Below, in pieces: positions 41,181 to 55,479 of a DNA stretch of 64,000 bases. A program made the position numbers and the translations under genes. The stretch is from positions 496,001 through 560,000 of the forward strand of contig JAPEUD010000006.1 of assembly GCA_026026165.1 (NCBI GenBank). The letters run 5' to 3'. Every line of letters starts with the position of its first letter. The first letter of the stretch is position 1. Under the pieces are notes generated by a model. The model had not been told where the DNA came from. It saw only the letters and a program-made list of their open reading frames with translations, and ran no database searches. The DNA is from Sarea resinae (taxonomy: Eukaryota).

Positions 41181-43710
41181 ATGTCGTCGACCAGCGAAAA
41201 CGAATCGAATGCAATGGCTTCGCCGCTTGGTTGGTATTCCTATCCTGATTGACAACTTTGACTGACATATTAACAGATCCTACACCTGAACCGCAACTCT
41301 CCACAAATACGTCTGACTCAACTCCGCTCGGGCAAGACTTCATTCCTGCTACCACTGCATCGCTTGACAAACTTCAAAATGATGAGCAGCGAAAGGTCCT
41401 CGACATTGTTGATTCGCTGCGACAGTGTGGACTGGAGGAGATCGTCTCCTTACCGCAGTTGGTCGTCTGCGGAGATCAGTCTTCGGGGAAAAGCTCGGTC
41501 CTCGAGGCAATCACTGAGATCCCGTTTCCTAGAAGAGAGAATCTTTGCACTCGTTTTGCTACTGAGATAGTCCTGCGCCGGGCTGCAAACCACTCTATCA
41601 GGACCAGAATCATTCCCGAAAAGTCAAGACCGAAGCACGAGCAAGATAAATTGGAACTTTTCAGAGAGTCTATCTCGGACTTTGACGAACTTCCTGGTCT
41701 GATCGATAAAGCCACGAAGCTCATGGGCATCGAAGAGGTCATTGACGGGACGCGAAAGGCTTTCGCCGGAGACGTTCTGAGCATTGAGATATCTGGACCC
41801 AATAGACCACAATTGACCTTGGTCGATCTTCCCGGTCTCATTCACTCAGAGAATAAGTTTGCAAACACGGAAGACATCCAGTTAGTGTCCAATCTTGTCG
41901 AACAATATATCTGTAATCCTCGGACAATCATCCTGGCAATTGTTTCAGCCCAGAATGATCATGCAAATCAGATCATCTTGAAGAGGGCCAGGATGTTCGA
42001 CAAGAAGGGAAGCAGGACACTAGGGATTATCACCAAGCCAGACGGACTTCATCCAGGCTCAGGCAACGAAAGCGCCTATATTGGTCTTGCGAAAAATGAG
42101 GATATTTTCTTCGCGCTCGGTTGGCATGTACTCAGGAACAGGGGCTTTCCTGAACGCCACGATAGCTTTGATCAGCGTAATCAATCCGAAAAGGCCTTTT
42201 TCAGCAAGGGTAGCTGGCAGAAATTGTCTTCTGACATGCTAGGGATCGAATCGCTCCGGGTCCGCTTGAGTGATCTTCTCTTCCAACATATCAAGTGGGA
42301 GCTTCCCAAGCTTCGAGAAGAGTTGAACAGAATTCATGATGAGACTGTTCGAGATCTACAAGCTTTGGGGAAGGAACGCTCCACAGTGGGCCAGCAAAAA
42401 GAGTACTTGATGCACCTCTGTCTGCAGTTCTACGACATTACTAGGGCGGGGGTCAACGGTCATTATGAATCCGACTACTTTGACAAGGTCAAGAGAACTA
42501 GGTCCTTTGGTTTTGCGCTTCATGAACGCCGACTGCGAGCCATGGTACAAGAACTGAACTTCAGGTTTGCGGAAGCGATGGGCAAAGCCGGGCATAAGTA
42601 TAGGATCAAGGGGCTGGCGTGCTTAGAGGACGATGATGCAGATGGAGATGATGAACCTCCGCAAGTTGTCGAGGCCATGAGCGAACAGGGCGAAGCCGAC
42701 GAGGATCAAGCCGACCACGATGAGAGCAACATCAGTTCGGAAGATGCTTCCGAAATATTGACTCGCTTGCCCAAAAACCTCAGTCGGTCTGATTCTCTTA
42801 GCTGGGTAAAGGAAATTCTTATCCGTACTCGAGGAAGGGAGCTGCCTGGAAACTTCAACCCTCTGCTCATCGGAGAGTTGTTCTGGGAACAATCCGAAAA
42901 TTGGCGAGAGCTGGCAGAGAACCATATCGAAGACGTCTCCAGACTCTGCGTCAACTTTGTCCAGGACTTACTCGAAGAGATCTGTCCTCCGGACGTCTGC
43001 TCCCGTCTTCAGACTTCAGCCATTGATGAGTCTCTAAGGCAGAGGCGGCTGGCTGGCGAAGACGAATTGGTCAAGCTCCTGAAAGACAGGAGACGTTATC
43101 CGATAACCTACAATCACTACTATACCACGGCAATCCAAAAGACGCGACGGAAAAAGCATCTGCCAGGGTTAGAGCAATGTCTACAAAGCGCAACAAGGAC
43201 CAGGAATATCTATCCCGGCAGGACTAGCACATTCAGACTGGCTGAGGAGGTGAAAGAGGTCGATAATGAGAAATTCCTTCGTTCTTTCGGCGAGAAGCTA
43301 GAGTTGGACATGGACAATCACTCGTGTAGCGATGCCCTTGATGATCTGCACGCCTTCTACAGAGTGAGTGTCTTTCCCTTGCATTACATCCCTCCTATTC
43401 AAATGCCCTCCTGCATCCATCACTTCCCCCAAAGAATCCTTTCGTTCCTAATCCTTCTCTCTTCAAAAAGGTTGCCCTCAAGACCTTCATCGACAACGTC
43501 ACGGTCCAAGTCGTCGAACGCCACATCGTCGACAAGCTCGAAGACGTCTTCTCGCCGCTGACCGTGAGCGCGTGGTCGGACGGCGAGGTGTCGGATCTCG
43601 TTGCCGAACCACCCACGACAGTCCGCCAGCGCGAGTATCTCAATAGCCGGAGACGCATGCTCGAGGACGGCAAGAAGGTCTTTCGGTCTGTCTTGAGAGG
43701 TCACGTATGA
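41181..43710 (+). CDS. Mx-like (fungal non-core) dynamin-family GTPase with C-terminal GED, 3 exons
   Basis: G1 GDQSSGKS (41471-41494), G2 CTRF, G3 DLPG, G4 TKPD, LGWHVLRNR, RGRELPGNFNP, PITYNHYYT. The last exon (VALKTFIDNVTVQVVERH...RQREYL) is GED-like. Introns near 41230-41276 and 43364-43470 keep the frame. Confidence 0.92.
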
Positions 43711-44089
43711 GTAGATTGTCTTTTTTTCATCTTGGTCCGTTTGGAGCTGGGTGGTTGAATTGGATGGAGATTGGGAGCGGGAACGGGAGTGGAAATGGGA
43801 GTGGAAAGGGGGATAGATCTGGGACCGGAAGTGGGACTGGATTTGGCATTGATTTGGAATCGGACTTGTGCTTAGATTCGTAACCAGCATGGGCGGCAAT
43901 GGAGATGTCGGATCATTAAGATTTTCCTTTGCCCTAAGTGAGGCCTTGCGAACAATAATGCCACCGGTGAGATAGTAAGTACGGCTCAGCTACCGTGACT
44001 ATGAGAATGTCAGTGGGAGAGATGGGGAGAGAGAGATTCTAAATACACAAGACACACTCTCAGTGGGAGGAGAGGTCCGGGTCCGGATC

Positions 44090-44385
44090 AGGTGTCTCTC
44101 TCTTCCTCACTTGGTTTGCTCATTTGCTTGTTTACTTGTCGAACTCACTTGCTTGTTTACTTGACTTGCTCACTTGCTCACTTGCTCACTCACTTATTTA
44201 TCTCCCTCACTTATTTTACTTATCTGTTTGTTCAAACTCACTTGCTTCCTTTCACTCACTCACTCCCTCCCTCCCTCCCTCCCTCCCTCCCTTACTCCTT
44301 TTCACCCTTTGTTGCTTTCCTGACAACCAAGAACTAAAGGGGCCTAGGGGCCCAGGGGCCCAGGGACCTAGGACCTAGGACCTGT
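44090..44385. repeat. Low-complexity (CACT/CTTG/CCCT)n tract and short GGG(A/C)CC(T/C)A repeats
   Basis: Directly visible degenerate short tandem repeats in the dynamin/F-box convergent intergenic region. Confidence 0.75.
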
Positions 44386-44565
44386 GCAAGAAACTAGTGT
44401 CAGATTTCACAGAGAGTAGAAACCTAAGCTTGAATTATACGTGTATATATAAACAAAGATTAGCAAACAAACAAACAAGTGAATAAATAAATAGAGAAAT
44501 GAACAGAAAGACGAAATGAATAAACTCGGGTTTATGGTATAAGGTATAGTAGGAGGAGGGGAGGG

Positions 44566-44624
44566 TAGGGTAAGGTAGGGTAAGGTAAGGTAGGGTAAGG
44601 TAGGGTAGGGTAGGGTAGGGTAGG
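44566..44624. repeat. (TAGGG/TAAGG)n pentamer array, about 12 units
   Basis: Directly visible; followed by (CTAG)n and, further on, (GAT)n. Confidence 0.9.
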
Positions 44625-45060
44625 CTAGCTAGCTAGCTAGTATCTATGATTACCTTGGGCGAAAAGGTGTAAAGGAAGGGATTAAGGTTGAATGTATTAA
44701 GGTTGAATGGACGACGACGATGATGATAGTGATGATGATGATGATGATGATGATGGCAGTAATGTGTATACGTCTGTAGGGACTACTGATTGATGCAAAC
44801 GTTTGATTATTATTATTGGAGCTAAAAATGTCTATGTCATGGAACTTTTCAGAGGACTGTATGTGTGTAGTGTGTAGCGGCCAAGTGATAAAGCCAGAAT
44901 CGCATCCCTTTACTTCACTTCACTCCACTTCCGTCCGCTAGGCTGTTCGGTTTAGAGTGTGGCTGTGACCAACAGAGCTCCTTCGGATAGCCGGCTGGCT
45001 GGCTGGCTGACGACGACGACGCTTCGAAGAAATATCAGAGAATCGGCCGCCTTCACAGCT

Positions 45061-46491
45061 CTATTCTGACCACTTCACGGCGCTCCTCTTCCACGTGCTC
45101 ATCCCCTCGATTTGCCAGCCACCCAAGTACCGGGGAGAAGCAAATTGGCTCGGGGGGTCTGGCTGGAGCACATATCCCAAGATAGGCAGAGCTTTCTCCA
45201 CGCCTCCGGTATAGATATCCAGCGTCTGGAAGTACTCGGCCGATGTCGTATACAGTACTAGACCTTCGAGGTTGTCCATGAGCGAATCATACATGTCGTC
45301 GATTTCCATCCAGGGATCGCGCGGCTCGGCGCGGGCGAAACGGGCTCCCTGGTCGAAGAGGTTGTCGATGTCCATGGGGTCGGGTTGGAACCGCACCGTC
45401 AGCGTGGTGAGATTGGGGAGGTTGGAGGGAGTGAGGAGGAAGTCTAGGGCGACCTGTTGGCATGCGAGCGGGAATATGGCAATGTATGTGAGAGCCCGAA
45501 GCCTGGAGAGGAAAGAGAGGGGTAGATCGGGATGCGAATCAGCAGCGACGAGGGCGGCCGACGCATCTGGGATGTGATGAAGAGTTGGATGAGAAGGGCC
45601 ATGGATGCGGCTGAGTGGTTCGATGATTGATGGTTGGACTTTTCGGACATATTCGTCGGTGCTGTATGCAAGCATCGATGAGCCTTCGCTCAAAGTCAAA
45701 GACGTCCAAGAGTAAGACGTGAGAATTTCGCTCGTAGAAGCAGGATGGGGCGGCGGCGAGGCACGTGAGGATGTTGGCGCCCTCTGGGTTAACTGAACTG
45801 CATGCAGGGGTTGGTCGAATGCCCAAGCATCACACCCGGTGGTGGTCGAGCGCAGGGGCAGGTTCAGGAGCGACGCGAGCGTTGAGGGTGGAGCGACGAT
45901 GGTGAGCTGAGTGGGACAGACGAAGGAGAGAATCTGCGGCCATACAAGTGCTCCAAGGCTGTTGGAGTCGCAGAATATGGGAATCCGTGCCTCGCCCGTC
46001 GTACGAGACCGAGAAAGAGATGGAGTCAGGTATGCCGCATCTGATACATCCGTCCAAGTGGAGATGAGAAAGGAAGAGACACAGCAAAGGAGGCCATGAG
46101 TGGTGAGAAACTGTTCGAGAGCCGCGATGTCTTGGGACAGTGTTGGGGGGAGTGAACTTGTATGATGTGCTAAGCAGCACGGATATTCATCTTGGTCTTC
46201 GTCTTCCGGACCGTGCGTGAGAGAAGATTTCTTGCACCAGCCTTCATGAAGGGATGATTCAAGCTTCAGTGACAAAGCGAGCCAGGTATGTTTGAACAGG
46301 TGCGGTAAGACCAATTGACGAAAATACTGCGAGACCAGGGAGACTTGTTTTATGCTGCTCTTGTGGTAGGGACGAGGTGCGAGGACGTATCGAGGCTCGC
46401 GGATGATGTTTCTCACTGAACAGGGAGCCTGGCCAAGGAAAGAAAAGACACGGTCGAGGATCTCCACCGGCAGATCTATCAGGGTTGGCAT
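45061..46491 (-). CDS. F-box domain protein, intronless, 476 aa
   Basis: N-terminal LIDLPVEILDRVFSFL...IKQVSLVSQYFRQLVLPHLF fits the F-box consensus. The ORF is long and uninterrupted. Confidence 0.82.
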   Translation of the reverse strand: MPTLIDLPVEILDRVFSFLGQAPCSVRNIIREPRYVLAPRPYHKSSIKQVSLVSQYFRQLVLPHLFKHTWLALSLKLESSLHEGWCKKSSLTHGPEDEDQDEYPCCLAHHTSSLPPTLSQDIAALEQFLTTHGLLCCVSSFLISTWTDVSDAAYLTPSLSRSRTTGEARIPIFCDSNSLGALVWPQILSFVCPTQLTIVAPPSTLASLLNLPLRSTTTGCDAWAFDQPLHAVQLTQRAPTSSRASPPPHPASTSEILTSYSWTSLTLSEGSSMLAYSTDEYVRKVQPSIIEPLSRIHGPSHPTLHHIPDASAALVAADSHPDLPLSFLSRLRALTYIAIFPLACQQVALDFLLTPSNLPNLTTLTVRFQPDPMDIDNLFDQGARFARAEPRDPWMEIDDMYDSLMDNLEGLVLYTTSAEYFQTLDIYTGGVEKALPILGYVLQPDPPSQFASPRYLGGWQIEGMSTWKRSAVKWSE

Positions 46492-46997
46492 CTTTGAATC
46501 GATGCCGTGCAGCTTTGTGAGATGGTTTGTTGAAGAAATGGTAATGCGAAAGCGTGGCGGAGAGAGTTGTGCGAGAGTGTATATCCGAAGATATCAGAGG
46601 GAGGTGGAGATCCGTCCAATTTATAGGCTCGGTCAGGAGCCATCTTGCTCATGCAGACTTCACAGCATTGAATCTCTATGAGGATGAATGGTGCATTGAA
46701 GCAACAATTAACGGAACAAAAGTATGGCGGGGTGGCCTATCACGTTTGTATCTAATCATATCAGATTCGATGACGTCAAATCTGAATACAAACAGACTTC
46801 CAGATGCAGCAACTACAGGTACGCTGTACCTGACCCGGAGTAAACTTACCTGACGACCTCGAAAAATACGAGACTATGCACGTAATTGTATTCTACTTTG
46901 CAGATACGTGCCTGTCTATCTATCTAGATTGTCTCGACATGGCAATCATGTCTGCCTTGTTCCATACTATACTTGTCCGCGAGGACCACTTATCGCC

Positions 46998-49900
46998 CTA
47001 GAGAGATAGATCCTGCAACATGTCCACCAGCTTTCGATTCCTTGCCTCAAACTCCTCACAGTAAGACTTGAGCATCTTAGCTTGATGCATCTGCGCTACA
47101 ATCCTAATGTCCTGCACATTATCGGGTCGAACATAAACGGTTGCATGCCTAAGGATATGCTGTTCGACCTTCTCGTGGAGAGCGGAAACAAGTAGGCGGT
47201 CAGTGTCTACAAGAAGATCAAGAAGAAAATCCAGGCTCGTTGCGATGGATTCATTGTCGTTGGCGTCGCTAAGGACGGGCCAGTCGATGTGGTTAGTATA
47301 AGCCCAAGCAACGATAGCTTCCAGACTGTTTGCTGTCATGTCTTCAAGCTCAATTGGGACTCCCGTGTCTAGATTGGCGGACCATGGACCCGAGAACTGG
47401 GCGTCGCAGTACGGGGAATAGATTGCTAGGATGCTACGGTGAGCGTAAATTATTTTGCCTGAGACGGAGAAAATGGCGTCGCAGTAATTTCCAGTCTCGC
47501 GTTGGCGCGCGAGCTTGGCCATAGTGGCAGTGGCAGAGGGCTCCGAGAATCTAGTTTCATTTCCAGAAGGCAGAGAAATGTCCGGGCGATAAACAGAGGC
47601 ACAGCCTAAAGCTCTAAGGAGCATTTCGTAGGGTGCGAGGAATGGTCTAACATATCGAATTGGAAGTGCATCAACGGGCGTATGGAGACATAAATGTTCA
47701 ATCGCTGTGAGGCTTTCTTTCACGTGTTTTATTCCCACGCTGGAAAGGTCGGTGGTGCTTAGATTGAGCCAAACTTTGGCTTGCTTTGCACCAGGGATGC
47801 TAGTGAGGAGGTCTGACGACTTTTGTAGAAAGCTATATGAGGCCTGGACGTCTTTAAGGATCTCTTGGAGGTCAGAGGAGACATACGTTCTCGTGGTTTC
47901 ATCCTCGTTGAACAGCGATATGAGATACCGCAGATGCTCCCATACTTGCTTGGTTGAGGGTGCGCCCTGATTGGAGACCTTTGAATAAACGTAGTCACAA
48001 GGCTCAATCTCAAGCGTTGGCGCCTGTGACCAAGAGACTCTGCTGTGCTTTGACTGAATGCTCTCGTCCAAGCTCCAAACCCAGTATTTGCTTGCTATAG
48101 CTAACATCCTATCTCGGCGATAGGAGCGTTCAGAAGAGAAATCCGTCCGCGCTGGGAAGATCGGGGAGCTAGCAATTAAATCCCAGGTATCACTCTTCCA
48201 GTCATGTATTGAGTGATTGTCCCAACGAAGATGGGAAAGGACTGTCTGGGCATCAGCAAGATAGTCAGATTGAGCAGCTTCTTCCATCATCCTTCTAGCT
48301 AGTGCCTCAATGCATTCGAGATACGCTCCTTCGGTGAAGCTACCATGCCCATCCCGTCGGCGAAGACCCGATTCACACCAGAAACGATAAAGATCGCAAA
48401 ACTTTTGATGAATGAAATGCGAACTCTTCTCTTTCCGGAAAGCCGCAGTGAAGACGGCGTCATGGTGGTCGTAGATATGTTCGATCGAACGTAGACAGCC
48501 GTCTCGGGTGGGGGCGACCCTAGCTCCGTAAAGTTCGCCAAAGCCTTGTGTGAAAAGGTGATGAATGTAATCATGATAAATATCCTCATTTTCGGGGGCA
48601 AGATAAGAGGGTTGAAGCTCGAGGTTTCGATCCACTATGCTTGCTGTTGACAGGAAAACCAAGCCAAGCTTTTCAAGCTGAGCGAAATGGTTCACGGCGT
48701 ATACAGGATCCATAAATCGATCTAGATGCTCTGTCCATGGAAGGAGTATCCTGGCTGACTCACAAGCAAGGAGCTTTCGAGCGGTGATGTACCGGATATC
48801 CCCTCCTATATGTAATGGCCAGATCGGCATTTCTCTCAATTCTGTATATAGGGCCCGGGTTGGTTCGGATTCAAGATAATGAAGGACAATTCCTTGCAAC
48901 ATCTAAATTCAATATGTGCTGTTAGCAAGCGCAATTCTCCCTAATCCTACGAAAACGAACAGTATAAGACTCACTTTCGGGTCGAATTTATCAAGCTGCT
49001 TTCTAAGAAAGTCTTCCAATGCTATCTCATCCTTCCTTGCTAATGCAAGACAGGAGCGCACAAATCGACCAAGTGATTCCGAAGAGAAAAGAGTCTCCTC
49101 CATGAGGAAACTTGGAAGTAGCTCACGATCAATAATTATTAAGCCTGAGATTCTTCGACATAATATAGACTGGTCGTGATCATTAGGTTCAAAAACACAT
49201 GGGGAATCGTTGATCGTGGCTGGGCAAATATGAAGTGCTTCTGTGCCCCTCTTTGCTGGATATATTGGTAGATCGAAGAGATTGTATCGCACCAAATATT
49301 CATGCAGAGTCGCCTTTGCTGAACCGGATTGGATTTCTTTTTCAAGGGCCTTGTTGAAAAGAGACCAGAATTTTGGTAGCCACAACCTTCGGGATTCAGA
49401 AGATTCTAGCATCGGAGATTTAGGAAGTCTCATAAGAGCGCCTAAATCCGAAATTGACAGTGGCCTAACATTGATCTTCTTCGAATTGAGTAAGCCTTTG
49501 ATTTGCTTCGGGGTCCGATTTTCAGCGCCAATATAAAGGGCCTTCTGATCGACAAACTTTTCGGGAGCGAAGTCAAAAACCTGATAGTCGTCTTCTGAGG
49601 CTAGGAAGAAAGTGTCCGTCGAGCCACTCGCATCTGCTATTGTACCCAGAGCGCCGTTGCGGAGAGGAAGAATTCTGCAGCCGACCAGCCGAGTAAAATA
49701 AGATTGATCATCGTAACCCTTGCCCTCTATCGTCGCTCTCTTCAGATTTTCGGTCAAAATGTATTCAAGCAAATCCGGTAATAGCTCTTTGTCGGCAGCT
49801 CTGCGAATCTGAAGGATTTGACAGGCGTCTTCGCCCTTGAAGGTCTGGCAAAGGTAAAGGCCGTCGATCCAGGTACCCTTGGCAGCAGAGATCGCAGCTG

Positions 49901-52900
49901 TGAGCTGGGCTGCCATCCCGAGTGGTAAGGGGACAAAGCTGTTGCAGAGCTCACGCAACAGCACTTCCAGACGTATCGTGCTTCTATGTGAGTTTAGGAA
50001 CTCGGCCGTTCTCAGGGTAGCAACCTGAACAGGTCTACGAGTTTTGCTACGAGCTAGTAAGGGGTTTATGACGATCTCTGGCACCTTGACGGGAAAAAGC
50101 TGTAGATTAAAAGAGCTCGCCTCTGCGAGTATCTCCCAGAAAGCCGTTCGAACTGTCTCTGAATATTGATCCTCTGCCTTCCATATTTTGGTAGGCCAAA
50201 AGTTCCTGTATATTGAATCTGGAAAGCTGCGCGCTAGCTGTTCTAGTAAGCTCAAGTATAGCCGGGGAATACAGGACTTTAGTAGCCACTGATTCCATTT
50301 TGATTCGTCTCGTCTAGCAGAATCATTGATCGGAATCGTCTGCCGGTCTCCCGTTATCATGAAGCTTCCGTGGATCGACACTGGCAAAGCGGTGGAAAAA
50401 GGCATTGGTAGAGTGCAGAAAACCCTTTGTGGCTTCCCCGGTAGTGAAACACACGCCGCAACCCCGCATTCAGTGAATTTCTGAGCCCTTCTGAATGGAG
50501 GAGCGATACCTTCGGGCTATTGAGTGTTAGTTTTGATTAGGCTCGAACTTATAGACCTTTGTACTTACAACGTTATCAAGGTCTTGGATAGCCACGTACC
50601 ACTTCTCGGTACCCTGTGCTTTACGCCCTTCGATGCCACCGGAGTAGTCTAGGTAGACTGGGCTGATAAAATTGGAAAGCTTCATTTCGCGTCCAACTTT
50701 AGTTGACCAGATTGGACAATCTTCGCCTCTGATACGAAAGCTGATCTGGCATATATTTCTTAGGAAGAGCAGGGATTGCCGAGCAGTAGGAAAATACTCC
50801 TCAAGCTCGCGCCTTGCAGAAGCTGGGCCAATGTGTTCGGTTCTTTCAGTCAGATGCGTAACGCTGCCGGCCTTCCGCAAAGGGAATCGGAAGAGGGTGC
50901 CGTTGTAGTAATCCTCATCCTTAAATCCGAAAAGTCCTGAAAATGGAGCCAGCTGGTCGCGAGAATACTCGCGGACAGACTTGAGTGGCAGCTTGAGACC
51001 TTGCATTCGCGATGAGCCAGATTTTCTCTTGGGTAGCAGTTCCTGTTGCGGATCTAGAATCACAAGGTACTTCCCCGAAATGAGCATGGGCGTATCTGTG
51101 AAATGATACGCTGTAATGGCACCGCGACCGAACATCCCAATCGCTCCAGCATCGTCCCTCTTGCTTCCTTTGCCGATGTTTTTGAAGCCAGCGAAGTCCT
51201 TGTCAGAAAAGACCCCGTCATTATGAACGAATATGGCTGCACCTTGCGATATAGCCAATCCCTCACTCAACAATTCAGTCTGTGCATGCTGCTCGTTATC
51301 CAACAGCCATGTCACATTGGTTGCACATCCACAATCTTCAGCATTTGCAAGGTATTCAGAGAACGTGGTTTGAATGGGGTATCGCTCCAGAGTATTTGAT
51401 ATGACTGTCGTGATTGACTCTTGTTGAATGTATTCATCTCCATCATCGTCATGAAGAGCGAGCTGGCCGCGTATGCAGGCTTCCCGAATTCCATCGATTT
51501 GCAAGTCTTTAGCAAGGCTGGCAGGGATAGCGGAGTGTACAAACTTTGTACCATCTGTCTCACCCAAGAGGCTGGGATCTCCGTGGGTCAATTGACTCAG
51601 TGGCACTAACATGCCTTGCTCATCCGGGATCATAAGATCTGTTAACGCATCTCTGGCACCTCGAGTAGCTCGCGGATGATCCTTCACCATCATTGTGACC
51701 AGTTTGATGAAGACCTGCAAATCCCTTTCCCCTAAAGGCCCTATTTTGCTGAGCTTTTCCTGGAGCTCGAATAAATCCTCGAGAGTAGGTCTGTTTCGAA
51801 TACCTAATCTCTTTAATAATTTTGGATGCACGAGCGAGAAGTGCCTGTCGACGTCATCTAAGTGTGGTGCAATATCGTACCGGGTATAATCCTTTTCCGC
51901 TAGAAAGGTATGCCGTGGCAGAAAGTATCGCGAACTACTGCCCAAGATACACTGCCTTTCTTTCAGCAAATCAGCGTAAACATCGATCCTAGCATCTGAT
52001 TCCATATAGCTGATAATCTTGTCAACATCAGCTTCCTGTTTGGCCGCAATAGAAAGTTCCAACTGTTTGAGGATCAGCTTCGGCTCAATCGGTTTGTCCC
52101 ATCCCAAAGGGAGAACCCAGGTTGGATCGATAGGAAAGTCCAGAACACCCAGCACGTGGGATACTAAGCTCTCTTGGTCTTTCCCGCGGCACTCGTGGCT
52201 TCGGATCAACTTGAAGCCTTCGGGTACTGTGGGTTGCTTTACAGGTAGCCAAAAGAACTGTCGCAAGTCTCTTTGGGATGTCTCATCGATTAGCATCTCC
52301 TCTGGGCACTTCAGCTGCAAGAGAGACCTAATTTTCTCTTCGACCTGTGGTCTTCCGCATGTTGAGTAGAAGGCAACCCGTTCCAGAACAATCTGCTTCG
52401 TCAGCGCCGTTCGTATCCCGTTTCCTGCCAGCCAGTTTTGATACCGAGCAAAGAACTCTGAATCAGGATGAACATCTTCATCTTCGAAATAGAGTGAGCG
52501 GAGAGACGTTGCATTTGGACTAATGATATCCCTTGGACATGCGTATCTCTTCTCTGCATCCGGGAATCTCGACAACGGTACAATGGGCAGAGAATCGATG
52601 GCTATCTTCCATGCCTTGGACCGCACACAATGCTCAAATATAAAGTCGATGAGGACGTCCTTGACCGCCGTCGAAATGTTCGGTACTTGATGATTCAGCG
52701 CCGGGAGCACATACTGATTCACAAGTTGTTTGAGTGATAATCGGGAGACAGCGCCATCCAATTCTTCGACGATAGAGGACGTTGAAGGGTAAGAGATATC
52801 TATGAATGTGACATCACGCGCAGGAGGCGCGACTGGCAGCATACCAATGGCTACGTAAGTTGTGTCCTCGACGAGAGAAGTCCATTCATACCCCAGAGAA

Positions 52901-55479
52901 CTACCGATGTCAGAAGGGCCGAGCGGCGACTAAAAGGCTTTAGACTTACGGGATATTGTTTTCAATCTTTGTAGTGGCCTTCCGAAAAATCGGAAGCTGT
53001 CGAAGCCGAGCTTTGACCAAAGCCGAAGTTTGCCGGCTCGATCGTCGTATTGCGGCATCGATGAGCTCTAGTGTATGGTCTTGCTCAAGGTCGAAGGCCC
53101 TGAACAAATGCTTACTGGAATATAGCCACGAGACAAGACCTCCTAAATCGTCTCCGAGAGCCAGTTTCAGCAAGGGCTCACTCGCCCAGGTCTTAATCAG
53201 TCCGATTGCCTGGTGACTTAGATAACTCGAGTCAAAGAGACCAGGCGATGAGCCTGGATCACGAGAAGCTAAGCACAGTGCCAGATTTTCGAGCTTCTCA
53301 TCTCCATGGTAGATGAGTGTGACGGGTAGTCTCTCATCAGGTTTAAGTTTTCGCAAGAGACCATGTCTCAACGGTATCAATCGCAAGGATTCTAGAGGCT
53401 CTCTCCGAGCCTTTTCATCCCATCGATCATGAATCCATTCCCATACGTCGTGGACCAAGCACTTCGTATCATCATTTTCGCCACCGCACTCGACGCAATG
53501 AAGTGTTTGCATCAGTGGCCAATCATACAGCAGATCCCCAAGATGACGGTAGCGGAGACAATCTCCGCTCGAATGGACATGTTTGTCAAGGACTTTCAAG
53601 CTTGAAGCGGAGAGTCTATCCAAGTCCACAGTCATTGAAGGCCTGGACCTCTGAAAAAGGCGAGCCTCTTCTTTGCTCCGGGGAAGATACTTAGTTGACC
53701 CACCTAAGGCACAGTAACTCCCATCACTCATTGGGAATAAAGGAAGTGATCCAGCATATTGGCATTGGTCGTCAGACAAGCAATATGTCAGCAGATCGGT
53801 CTTCGTAGCAGGTGAAGTGCTTTGCATCAAGTCGGATGTCTCTAAGAATTTCCGAATCGCAGGAGGCGTCAATAGAGGGATATGCCGTCCAGCACTCTTG
53901 ATAGCGACTCTTATACTCGATGGGCAATGGACTATTGGCATTTGAACGCTTGCCAAAGCTTTCAAGATTTTGGTGGAGGTTGACGCGGATGGGAAGAACA
54001 CTTTCGTAAATTCGAAGCATCCATGCCGCGAATACCAGACAGGCAGGTCACGATCAATGATTTGATTGACTACTGCAATATCCAGTACGTGCCACGGCTC
54101 CGTCGACTGGCCACTACACGTTGGCCAGAGACTGAAATTTTCCTCGGAGACTGCTCCCCTCAAGTGCAGTAGATGGGACCATGTTGAGGCTGCGCAGTCT
54201 TTGAACATGATAGAGTTCCATTTGACTGCGAGGTCATCGGAGGAGCTGGATGCGCTAGATGAAAGTCGTGCTCGGTCAGGAGCAATGCTCCAGAAACCGT
54301 GTATATGTAATGGCTGGTCTGTACGAATTGGGAGTCGAAAATACGAAAAAAGATGTCCTTCGAATCTTCTCTCTTCAGGGTCTTCTCCGCGCTGTAATAC
54401 GTTGGCATTAAATCAATCAAAGCTAGATCACGCATGGGATGTCTTACCTTCACTGGGGCGGCCATTCCAACACAAGGAAACAATTTTTGCTCCTTTGCCC
54501 ACTCATCTAATTCTTGATCGCCGCAAGACTTTCGTAATTGGTGGACTACAATGTACTCAGTTTGCTTTGTGGTCGCACCAAATGTGTGCTCCAATATTGC
54601 CTGGAAATTGTACTGGCAAAGGTTCTGCTGCGGCGGGTCGAAACCTTTATCCGGGGCGAATAGAGCTCGGAAGGCCTTGTTGATCTTTTCTTTTGCTTCT
54701 ATGACATCAGGACCGATAATCTTTGTAGAAGCAAAATTTTTAGCATCAACTCTGAGTCGCACGCTACTGACATGCCTTGCAAATATAATCCCACCATCTT
54801 CAAGCTCTCGCGCAAAGGCTGAAAAGTCAGCGACGATATCGGCCAGCGTTGCACTTTTCTTGACAATCTCGCTGGCTTGCGCCTGCTCTTCAGTTCGCAA
54901 CGGAATACGGATGATTGTGCCATTGAAAAAGCCGAAAGAGTCAAAAGAGAATGCCGAGAAAGCTTTGAGGTGGTTCTGCACTTTAGACAGTCCCTCGAGA
55001 TCATCTTGAGACTCCTCGTTGGTGCTATAGATAGGACCACCGACATATTCTGGTGGCAGAGATCTTGTCCAGCTATGATGAGGATCGAGAAGAAGTAGAG
55101 AATCCCCTGAGAAGATCGAAGGAGCATCAGTATAATGGAATACTGAGTTGAATCCCTGGCCGAATTTGCCGGTTGAAGTCGGGTCGTGAAGCTTGATAGA
55201 ACTACCAATGCTCGCTAATGATCCAAAATCCTCCTTTTGGAAGAGACTGTTGTTATAAACTAGAAGAGCGGGCCCTTCGAATTGACCGAGTTCCGCATGA
55301 AGCAACGGCCGATTGTCGTATGATCTGGTATCGAGAACAAATTCAACTTCCGTAGCTCCCGCATCATCTGCATTCTGAAGCAACTCTCGAAATATAGAGC
55401 GAGCAGGATAGTATTTGCAAATGTTCGCGATGGTGGTGGTTATCGATTGGTTCTGGCGAGCCGTGCCTCGGAGAGACAT
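46998..55479 (-). CDS. Sacsin-like protein: two GHKL (HATPase) sacsin repeat modules plus a C-terminal BTB/POZ domain; 5 exons, about 2750 aa
   Basis: Exons 55479-54448, 54391-52950, 52900-50569, 50516-48975 and 48902-46998 join in frame through GT-AG introns (8253 nt). Module 1: RELLQNADDAGAT..GPALLVYNN..GKFGQGFNSVFHYTD..IIRIPLR..LHIHGFW. Module 2: EYLANAEDCG..GAAIFVHND..GMFGRG..YHFTD..GTLFRFPLR..LPVSIHGSF. BTB: CDAIFSVSGKIIYAHRSILAIYSPY..FSGPW. Confidence 0.88.

Follow-up and report, generated by a model that had tools for sequence, protein, structure and literature searches.

Do the three adjacent genes that lie in the window (a 64,000-nucleotide stretch of Sarea resinae assembly GCA_026026165.1, contig JAPEUD010000006.1, positions 496,001 to 560,000 of the forward strand) form a functional unit, or do they stand side by side by accident? 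The genes encode an Mx-like dynamin, an F-box protein and a sacsin-BTB protein, and an earlier, sequence-only reading had proposed that together they make up an innate-immunity or proteostasis module. We put the probability at roughly 0.68 that the trio is an incidental cluster of accessory genes and that the sacsin-BTB gene is a stand-alone gene of mobile genomic address, most likely encoding an ATP-gated substrate adaptor of Cul3. The edges of the trio are two start codons, at 41181 (+) and 55479 (-), and the three genes, whose models were spliced by hand with GT-AG introns and no internal stops, are intact and lie side by side as follows (aa, amino acids):

41181..43710, + strand: Mx-like dynamin (MxF), 791 aa; exons 41181-41229, 41277-43363 and 43471-43710.
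45061..46491, - strand: divergent F-box protein, 476 aa, one exon; N-terminal split F-box and C-terminal alpha/beta repeat region (fungal family).
46998..55479, - strand: sacsin-BTB protein, 2,750 aa; exons 55479-54448, 54391-52950, 52900-50569, 50516-48975 and 48902-46998.

Pfam models above cut-off were Dynamin_N and Dynamin_M, two copies of SACS (E 3e-59 and 5e-49) and BTB (E 2e-15). The domain identities given in the sequence-only reading were right for all three genes, as judged from Pfam, matches in the PDB and, for the F-box protein, family support. The spliced models also agree with its description of a dynamin gene converging on a tandem sacsin-BTB and F-box pair, and both F-box protein motifs that it quoted, DAWAFD and WTSLTLSEGSS, were found in the 476-aa product.

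Linkage of the three families was assessed by a metagenome scan with an alignment of the SACS region, in which the best 80 of 108 relatives yielded 79 loci with flanks of up to 10 kb. These loci represent 37 DNA clusters and 270 kb of non-redundant flank; 63 of the 79 have a usable flank of 1.5 kb or more and fall into 26 neighbourhoods, a slightly low count in which two joins were made on distant similarity only. Six-frame open reading frames (ORFs) of all loci were searched with a dynamin profile, a profile of the window's F-box family, an F-box motif and a generic F-box profile. In 25 of the 26 neighbourhoods, Mx-like dynamin and F-box were both absent. The exception, locus L081, gave the only match to the dynamin profile, and likewise the only one in the motif scan and with the generic F-box profile. 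The profile of the window's F-box family matched at none of the 79 loci, the three families of the window were kept together in 0 of 26 neighbourhoods, and none of the window's other neighbour genes occurred in any flank of the 79 loci. This genome has five further MxF-like loci, and none had a SACS or F-box match within the ~20 kb searched at each; 20 sacsin relatives compared by locus tag had no genome in common with the named dynamin relatives. The recurrence of MxF or F-box genes beside sacsin-BTB relatives, which had been suggested as a check on the three-gene unit, was thus confined to L081, and the unit itself was not borne out. The caveat attached to that proposal, that the F-box protein belongs to a widespread fungal family and that the adjacency may be incidental, proved the better reading. 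What stands of the defence angle is that turnover is high in each family and that each has a precedent in defence, namely MxF, a Tiamat-like ATPase and cullin adaptors; a joint unit does not.

DNA comparison of the loci indicates that the sacsin-BTB gene changes genomic address alone, the copies being orthologues in sister species or paralogues. Four copies (L032, L033, L034 and L039) share 89-93% DNA identity over the whole 8.6-kb gene, introns included, and their homology stops ~30-150 bp beyond the coding ends; in none of the 6 pairs do the flanks resemble each other. L044 and L075 (96%) and L092 and L093 (79-83%) likewise lie in differing contexts. Some flanks of relocated copies are AT-rich or carry a transposase; no terminal repeats were seen by eye at these copies. 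An inherited or co-transferred fixed cassette of all three genes, for example as Starship cargo, is highly improbable and largely refuted, the arrangement being kept at no locus. Consistent with such a cassette are the dynamin, which is 64-70% identical to a small clade of Leotiomycete and metagenome proteins and ~50% identical to most other relatives, and the third-position GC content (GC3) of the sacsin-BTB gene, which at 0.49 is the lowest among 18 ORFs compared. However, the sacsin and dynamin trees give different nearest relatives, no terminal repeats were found, and no match to a Starship captain (DUF3435) was found on the contig (C100); five such matches, all with stops, lie on three other contigs (lower bounds).

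Turnover of the gene is also apparent within loci. Tandem sacsin-BTB copies occur at L084 and L095, the latter with a NACHT-type fragment between the copies and the second copy broken. A one-base frameshift in the BTB is common to the split frames of L053, L055 and L056, three of the eight BTB-reaching loci of the L048 group, and divergence among sacsin-BTB loci is mosaic, with mosaic haplotypes. Across L048-L056, divergence is up to 7-12% in the first 5 kb, where a phosphatase-like gene lies, and ~1% or less on the Ndc1 side. Balancing selection on the sacsin gene, suggested by a dS of 0.106 versus 0.014 in Ndc1, was rejected since the upstream region diverges more and the signal is not gene-specific.

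The ratio of non-synonymous to synonymous substitution rates (dN/dS) of sacsin-BTB was 0.16-0.64 in all pairs for which it could be defined (26 of 27), compared with 0.06-0.25 in five neighbour-gene pairs, and the pooled polymorphism counterpart (pN/pS) did not exceed 0.46 in any 125-codon bin (14 pairs). The sacsin-BTB gene is under relaxed purifying selection, and at 125-codon resolution nothing points to an arms race; the dN/dS check proposed in the sequence-only reading thus returned purifying selection, yet a weaker form of it than in neighbouring genes. Positive selection was not found; two BTB-only windows exceed 1 (1.03 and 1.5) on few changes. Such constraint would suit a chaperone or scaffold of housekeeping type, comparable to human sacsin, whose BTB dimerises only and which has no ligase or conflict role, as would the quick tree of sacsin-BTB proteins, which roughly tracks fungal classes, and the description of sacsin as a chaperone in the available part of PMC3710099. 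We regard this explanation as improbable, because the 3-box/BACK helices are kept and a Cul3 complex is predicted (see below), and because solo relocation, tandem duplication with decay, a frameshifted allele and mosaic haplotypes fit a dispensable gene.

The reading of the sacsin-BTB product as a Cul3 adaptor comes from its domains, which run from the N-terminus to the C-terminus in the following order:

54721..55449, - strand: GHKL ATPase head 1 (sacsin repeat 1), ~aa 16-253; Pfam SACS, sacsin structures, PADLOC TmtA E 2e-33.
50722..51423, - strand: GHKL ATPase head 2 (sacsin repeat 2), ~aa 1318-1551; Pfam SACS, PADLOC TmtA E 1e-18.
47547..48902, - strand: helical/solenoid core preceding the BTB; resembles the core region of sacsin-NOV/Tiamat-like proteins.
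46998..47546, - strand: BTB and 3-box/BACK-like helices; predicted Cul3-recruiting, dimerising module.

Head 1 matched the sacsin crystal structures 5v44-5v47 (E 1e-36 to 5e-38) and keeps the motifs ELLQNADD, GKFGQGF and DR; head 2 keeps EYLANAED, GMFGRG and DR. The ExxxNxxD, Gly-rich and DR motifs are retained in both heads of most relatives too. By these motifs the protein belongs to the SACS superfamily, having the catalytic Glu/Asn, the Gly-rich lid and, in DR, an arginine that we take by analogy with Tiamat to be the transducer Arg. The matches of both heads to PADLOC TmtA, which represents the bacterial anti-phage protein Tiamat, are confined to the ATPase part. The full 2,750-aa model aligns end to end with seven of eight full-length relatives (29-32% identity), and its gene is the sole two-SACS gene found in the genome. 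The public protein M1819_005660 (2,154 aa) corresponds to residues 597-2750 of our model; its annotation begins within exon 2, is 596 aa short and omits head 1 (window 53692-55479, -).

The core preceding the BTB was aligned by hhalign with a bacterial-type SACS-NOV_C protein of L100 (probability 86%, E 5e-6), and in an atlas its feature similarity was 0.97 to clusters in which half of the members have DUF3684. It did not match the genome's own DUF3684 protein (hhalign 1%), no DUF3684 match was found by Pfam in the sacsin-BTB protein, and no PDB match to the core appeared in whole-model searches, which the BTB dominated. A separate, intact 1,714-aa frame with a SACS ATPase and DUF3684 (Tiamat-like) lies between housekeeping genes at L113:4809-9950 (G000:C80). 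Viral contigs gave one bacterial-type sacsin-NOV locus: at L100:9917-17422, on a contig from a viral collection, a SACS-NOV_C gene is followed by a NERD-helicase gene, as in a Tiamat type outlined in the available part of the preprint (bioRxiv 10.64898/2026.09.30.754977).

The AlphaFold2 model of the C-terminus (predicted local distance difference test, pLDDT, 90.8) matched the BTB/3-box of SPOP (Foldseek E 2e-7; Z 15.5, root-mean-square deviation 2.4, 147 residues aligned), and KLHL structures matched too. The predicted fold is thus that of a Cul3 adaptor, a BTB followed by 3-box/BACK helices. When modeled with an N-terminal fragment (130 aa) of the genome's own Cul3, it gave a complex score of 0.86, compared with 0.41 for the best of three controls, with contacts agreeing in at least 97% across runs and a partner pLDDT of at least 87. 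In calibration, 51 of 78 solved microbial pairs attained the mark for such a score, as did 39 of 65 solved eukaryotic pairs; of the mismatched pairs, 2 of 108 microbial and 2 of 126 eukaryotic ones did so. The BTB/3-box is therefore predicted by modeling to dock on two N-terminal helices of Cul3, with the interface at exon-5 residues 497-509. A cluster of BTB genes with identical scores at G000:C84:154923-163272 and C123:46433-54782 represents an assembly duplicate or a recent duplication.

BTB domains provide dimerisation as well as ligase recruitment. Tiamat, in the available part of a preprint, is proposed to be a clamp dimerised at its ATPase and at a C-terminal nuclease, the latter often swapped (bioRxiv 10.64898/2026.09.30.754977). 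Taken together, the two suggest an ATP-gated Cul3 adaptor. The BTB would dimerise the C-termini of two sacsin-BTB chains, as SPOP and the biology of Hsp90 and Tiamat suggest, and the ATPase heads would open and close the resulting clamp in the manner of Hsp90 and Tiamat. The solenoid may grip a large client, such as a protein aggregate, filament or nucleoprotein, while the BTB would recruit the predicted N-terminal helices of Cul3; Cul3-Rbx1 could then ubiquitinate the client, whether viral or self. The MxF and F-box genes would act apart from sacsin-BTB.

Several observations weigh against these conclusions. Divergent F-box neighbours may have escaped detection, since the window's own F-box is missed by the generic profile and the F-box regular expression recovers only 15 of 30 known ones. 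Flanks extend only 6-7 kb beyond the gene, reaching 4 kb or more downstream in just 18 of the 37 DNA clusters, and the closest sampled relative of the window's sacsin-BTB is a distant one (34%). In some lineages, the gene stays beside Ufd2 or Ndc1. BTB-Cul3 complexes have already been solved, so the passing score of the predicted complex may reflect those structures. Lastly, L081 carries all three gene types, where 0.002-0.007 such loci would be expected under uniform placement; this figure becomes 0.04-0.5 on the assumption that variable regions are 5-10-fold richer in both families.

The arrangement at L081:2329-17258, on a metagenome contig, is MxF (+), sacsin-BTB (+) and F-box-ankyrin (-), with a gene for an RNA polymerase subunit preceding MxF; its F-box-like Pfam match scores 29.3 bits, over the cut-off. 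This locus is the best case for functional clustering, in which sacsin-BTB, MxF and F-box proteins serve one antiviral or non-self pathway and are repeatedly joined by selection as eukaryotic defence islands, since the only locus with either partner has both. Of the 316 flank ORFs at 36 representative loci, 277 were run against Pfam, the other 39 being near-duplicates or from phage loci, and the neighbours so identified are mixed. HET (L026), NACHT-type (L095), TPR/hydrolase (L044), ankyrin (L034, L086 and L092), RNA-dependent RNA polymerase (L034) and transposase genes could be taken to favor clustering, as could the antiviral relatives of Tiamat and MxF described in the available portions of the respective reports. 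However, many neighbours are of housekeeping type (Ndc1, Ufd2, ELP1, Cys-tRNA synthetase, GMP synthase and catalase), both partners are missing from all other neighbourhoods, and chance alone would yield the expectation given above under the assumed enrichment. L081 also differs from the window in gene order and orientation, and its F-box belongs to another family and has a different tail. Its dynamin is of a different subfamily, being 36% identical to that of the window and placed as sister to the paralog that this genome has on C82, and its sacsin falls in a different starred clade of the quick tree; these placements show that the L081 trio was assembled independently. Functional clustering is therefore unlikely. 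L081 is then a chance meeting of accessory genes or a case of convergent clustering. Chance is favored by the available part of an A. fumigatus pangenome preprint, in whose accessory gene set dynamin-family GTPases appear along with F-box-like, NACHT and ankyrin domains (10.64898/2026.04.14.718449). A combined version, to which we also give little weight, would make sacsin-BTB a Tiamat-related immune sensor in which the anti-phage nuclease was swapped for a Cul3-recruiting BTB and whose ATP-driven clamp seizes viral or non-self assemblies and passes them on to be degraded, the gene hopping alone and being repeatedly parked by selection beside Mx-like dynamins and F-box adaptors as convergent defence islands (the window and L081).

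The best eight PDB sequence matches of the dynamin were human Mx1/Mx2 (E 1e-36 to 1e-32), with Vps1 behind (3e-27), a ranking that places the GTPase nearer to Mx than to Vps1, Dnm1 or Mgm1; all of the G1-G4 motifs are present. Relatives numbered 6,452 among 8,000 scored, with none on viral contigs. Six MxF-like loci occur in the genome, and at one of them three stops interrupt the GTPase domain. In a FastTree tree made from sequences other than published MxF and animal Mx proteins, the window dynamin was set apart from four other dynamins of the same genome. It grouped instead with Stipitochalara and Bisporella proteins (support 100), with 67% full-length identity to the former, a Leotiomycete-like affinity that may point to horizontal transfer or hidden paralogy. 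From its sequence, the protein fits the MxF class as described in the available part of Langley et al. (PMC11789081). At L105-L106 (G000:C38:6657-13060), on a 21-kb contig, a stop-bearing MxF paralog has an AAA ATPase and an alpha/beta hydrolase as its neighbours.

The F-box-like Pfam score of the F-box protein was 17.7 bits, under the cut-off of 24.3, because an insertion splits the motif. Fifteen relatives at 25-29% identity were found, two of them named F-box, and the atlas placed the protein among fungal F-box clusters (0.94-0.96; best structural row, template modelling score 0.57). A fold search with our own model (pLDDT 64) gave no PDB match at E 0.001. F-box neighbours must be common in this genome, which has at least 45 F-box-like matches. 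A piece of the gene (window 46046-46115) is duplicated on a variant contig at L155 (G000:C72:24499-24624; 71% over 46 aa).

The trio is flanked by genes of the ThrE exporter and Asp/Glu-racemase families (Pfam). Contigs from a read run covered the stretch in 30 of 30 bins at a depth of 270-450 with no joints; the run is one that holds the stretch and is possibly its source, so this coverage is not independent. Identical public proteins are M1819_005658 and M1819_005660 of an S. resinae metagenome-assembled genome, and the dynamin model is identical to the public protein P0020. Signs of repeat-induced point mutation are absent within the window. A low-complexity, microsatellite-rich spacer (window 44100-44780) separates the convergent 3' ends of the dynamin and F-box genes.

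A search with the last sacsin-BTB exon found 401 clusters at E 0.001 and 103 at 1e-30, and plain BTB proteins are among the weaker matches. Relatives that combine SACS with BTB are known by name from Gyalolechia, Bacidia, Cadophora, Tricladium, Sclerotinia, Vezdaea, Piccolia, Blastenia and the basidiomycete Crepidotus, so that the family spans lichen fungi, Leotiomycetes and one basidiomycete; some members carry the UniRef label 'BTB domain-containing protein'. Members lacking the BTB were considered, and P0210 was rejected, being the L024 frame broken at an intron-like GT..AG; P0216, P0222 and P0227 are assumed to be likewise. A full-text search, covering few subscription papers, found no paper on the fungal sacsin-BTB architecture, which Anderson et al. 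2010, who reportedly defined the sacsin repeat, or the preprint supplements may list. The term 'BTB' is absent from the main texts, as available, of both Tiamat/NO VEIN preprints (bioRxiv 10.64898/2026.09.30.754977 and.755639) and PMC3710099.

The sacsin-BTB family matters more than the trio, which is probably ordinary. Known Cul3 adaptors, to our knowledge, bind their substrates passively; if our reading is correct, sacsin-BTB with its pair of ATPase clamps would be an active arm of the ligase that remodels its clients, and would add a ubiquitin-ligase output to the sacsin/Tiamat superfamily. A C3HC4 zinc finger is itself a RING-type E3 module. One terminates an Arabidopsis sacsin-repeat protein in the available part of a preprint (bioRxiv 10.64898/2026.09.30.755639). 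Two 2026 preprints, as far as available, tie the superfamily to antiviral defence and leave the antiviral role of eukaryotic members open (10.64898/2026.09.30.754977 and.755639); a fungal member would offer a genetically tractable test of such a role, and a simpler model for the grip of the sacsin repeat. The solo movement of an intron-containing 8.6-kb gene, at which terminal repeats were not seen, calls for explanation.

Compared with known systems, the F-box protein of the window resembles fungal F-box and F-box-like proteins (SCF adaptors) in its N-terminal LPxE motif and in having relatives named F-box, and differs in the insertion that splits its motif and in its sub-cut-off Pfam score. 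The dynamin resembles the fungal MxF proteins in the available part of Langley et al. 2025 (PMC11789081), in that Mx is its closest solved relative, it is multi-copy in this genome and at least one paralog is broken; no differences were found. Human sacsin (SACS) and Arabidopsis AT5G23110 share tandem sacsin repeats with sacsin-BTB, and head 1 matches sacsin crystal structures; sacsin proper, however, has three repeats with J and HEPN domains, whereas sacsin-BTB has two SACS repeats and a BTB terminus only, and Pfam identified neither a ubiquitin-like nor a J or HEPN domain in it. With Tiamat (TmtA) and Tiamat-like proteins including the plant protein NO VEIN, as portrayed in the available parts of the two preprints (bioRxiv 10.64898/2026.09.30.754977 and.755639), it shares a SACS-type, TmtA-like N-terminal GHKL ATPase that precedes a putative solenoid core, and a C-terminal module of the kind that is readily exchanged, but it has two ATPase repeats and a BTB/3-box in place of the NOV_C/PD-(D/E)xK nuclease. 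Finally, like the BTB/3-box Cul3 adaptors SPOP, KLHL/Keap1 and KBTBD, it combines a BTB and 3-box/BACK fold with predicted docking on Cul3; where they bear a passive MATH or Kelch domain, it would engage substrates with a double ATPase of 2,570 aa.

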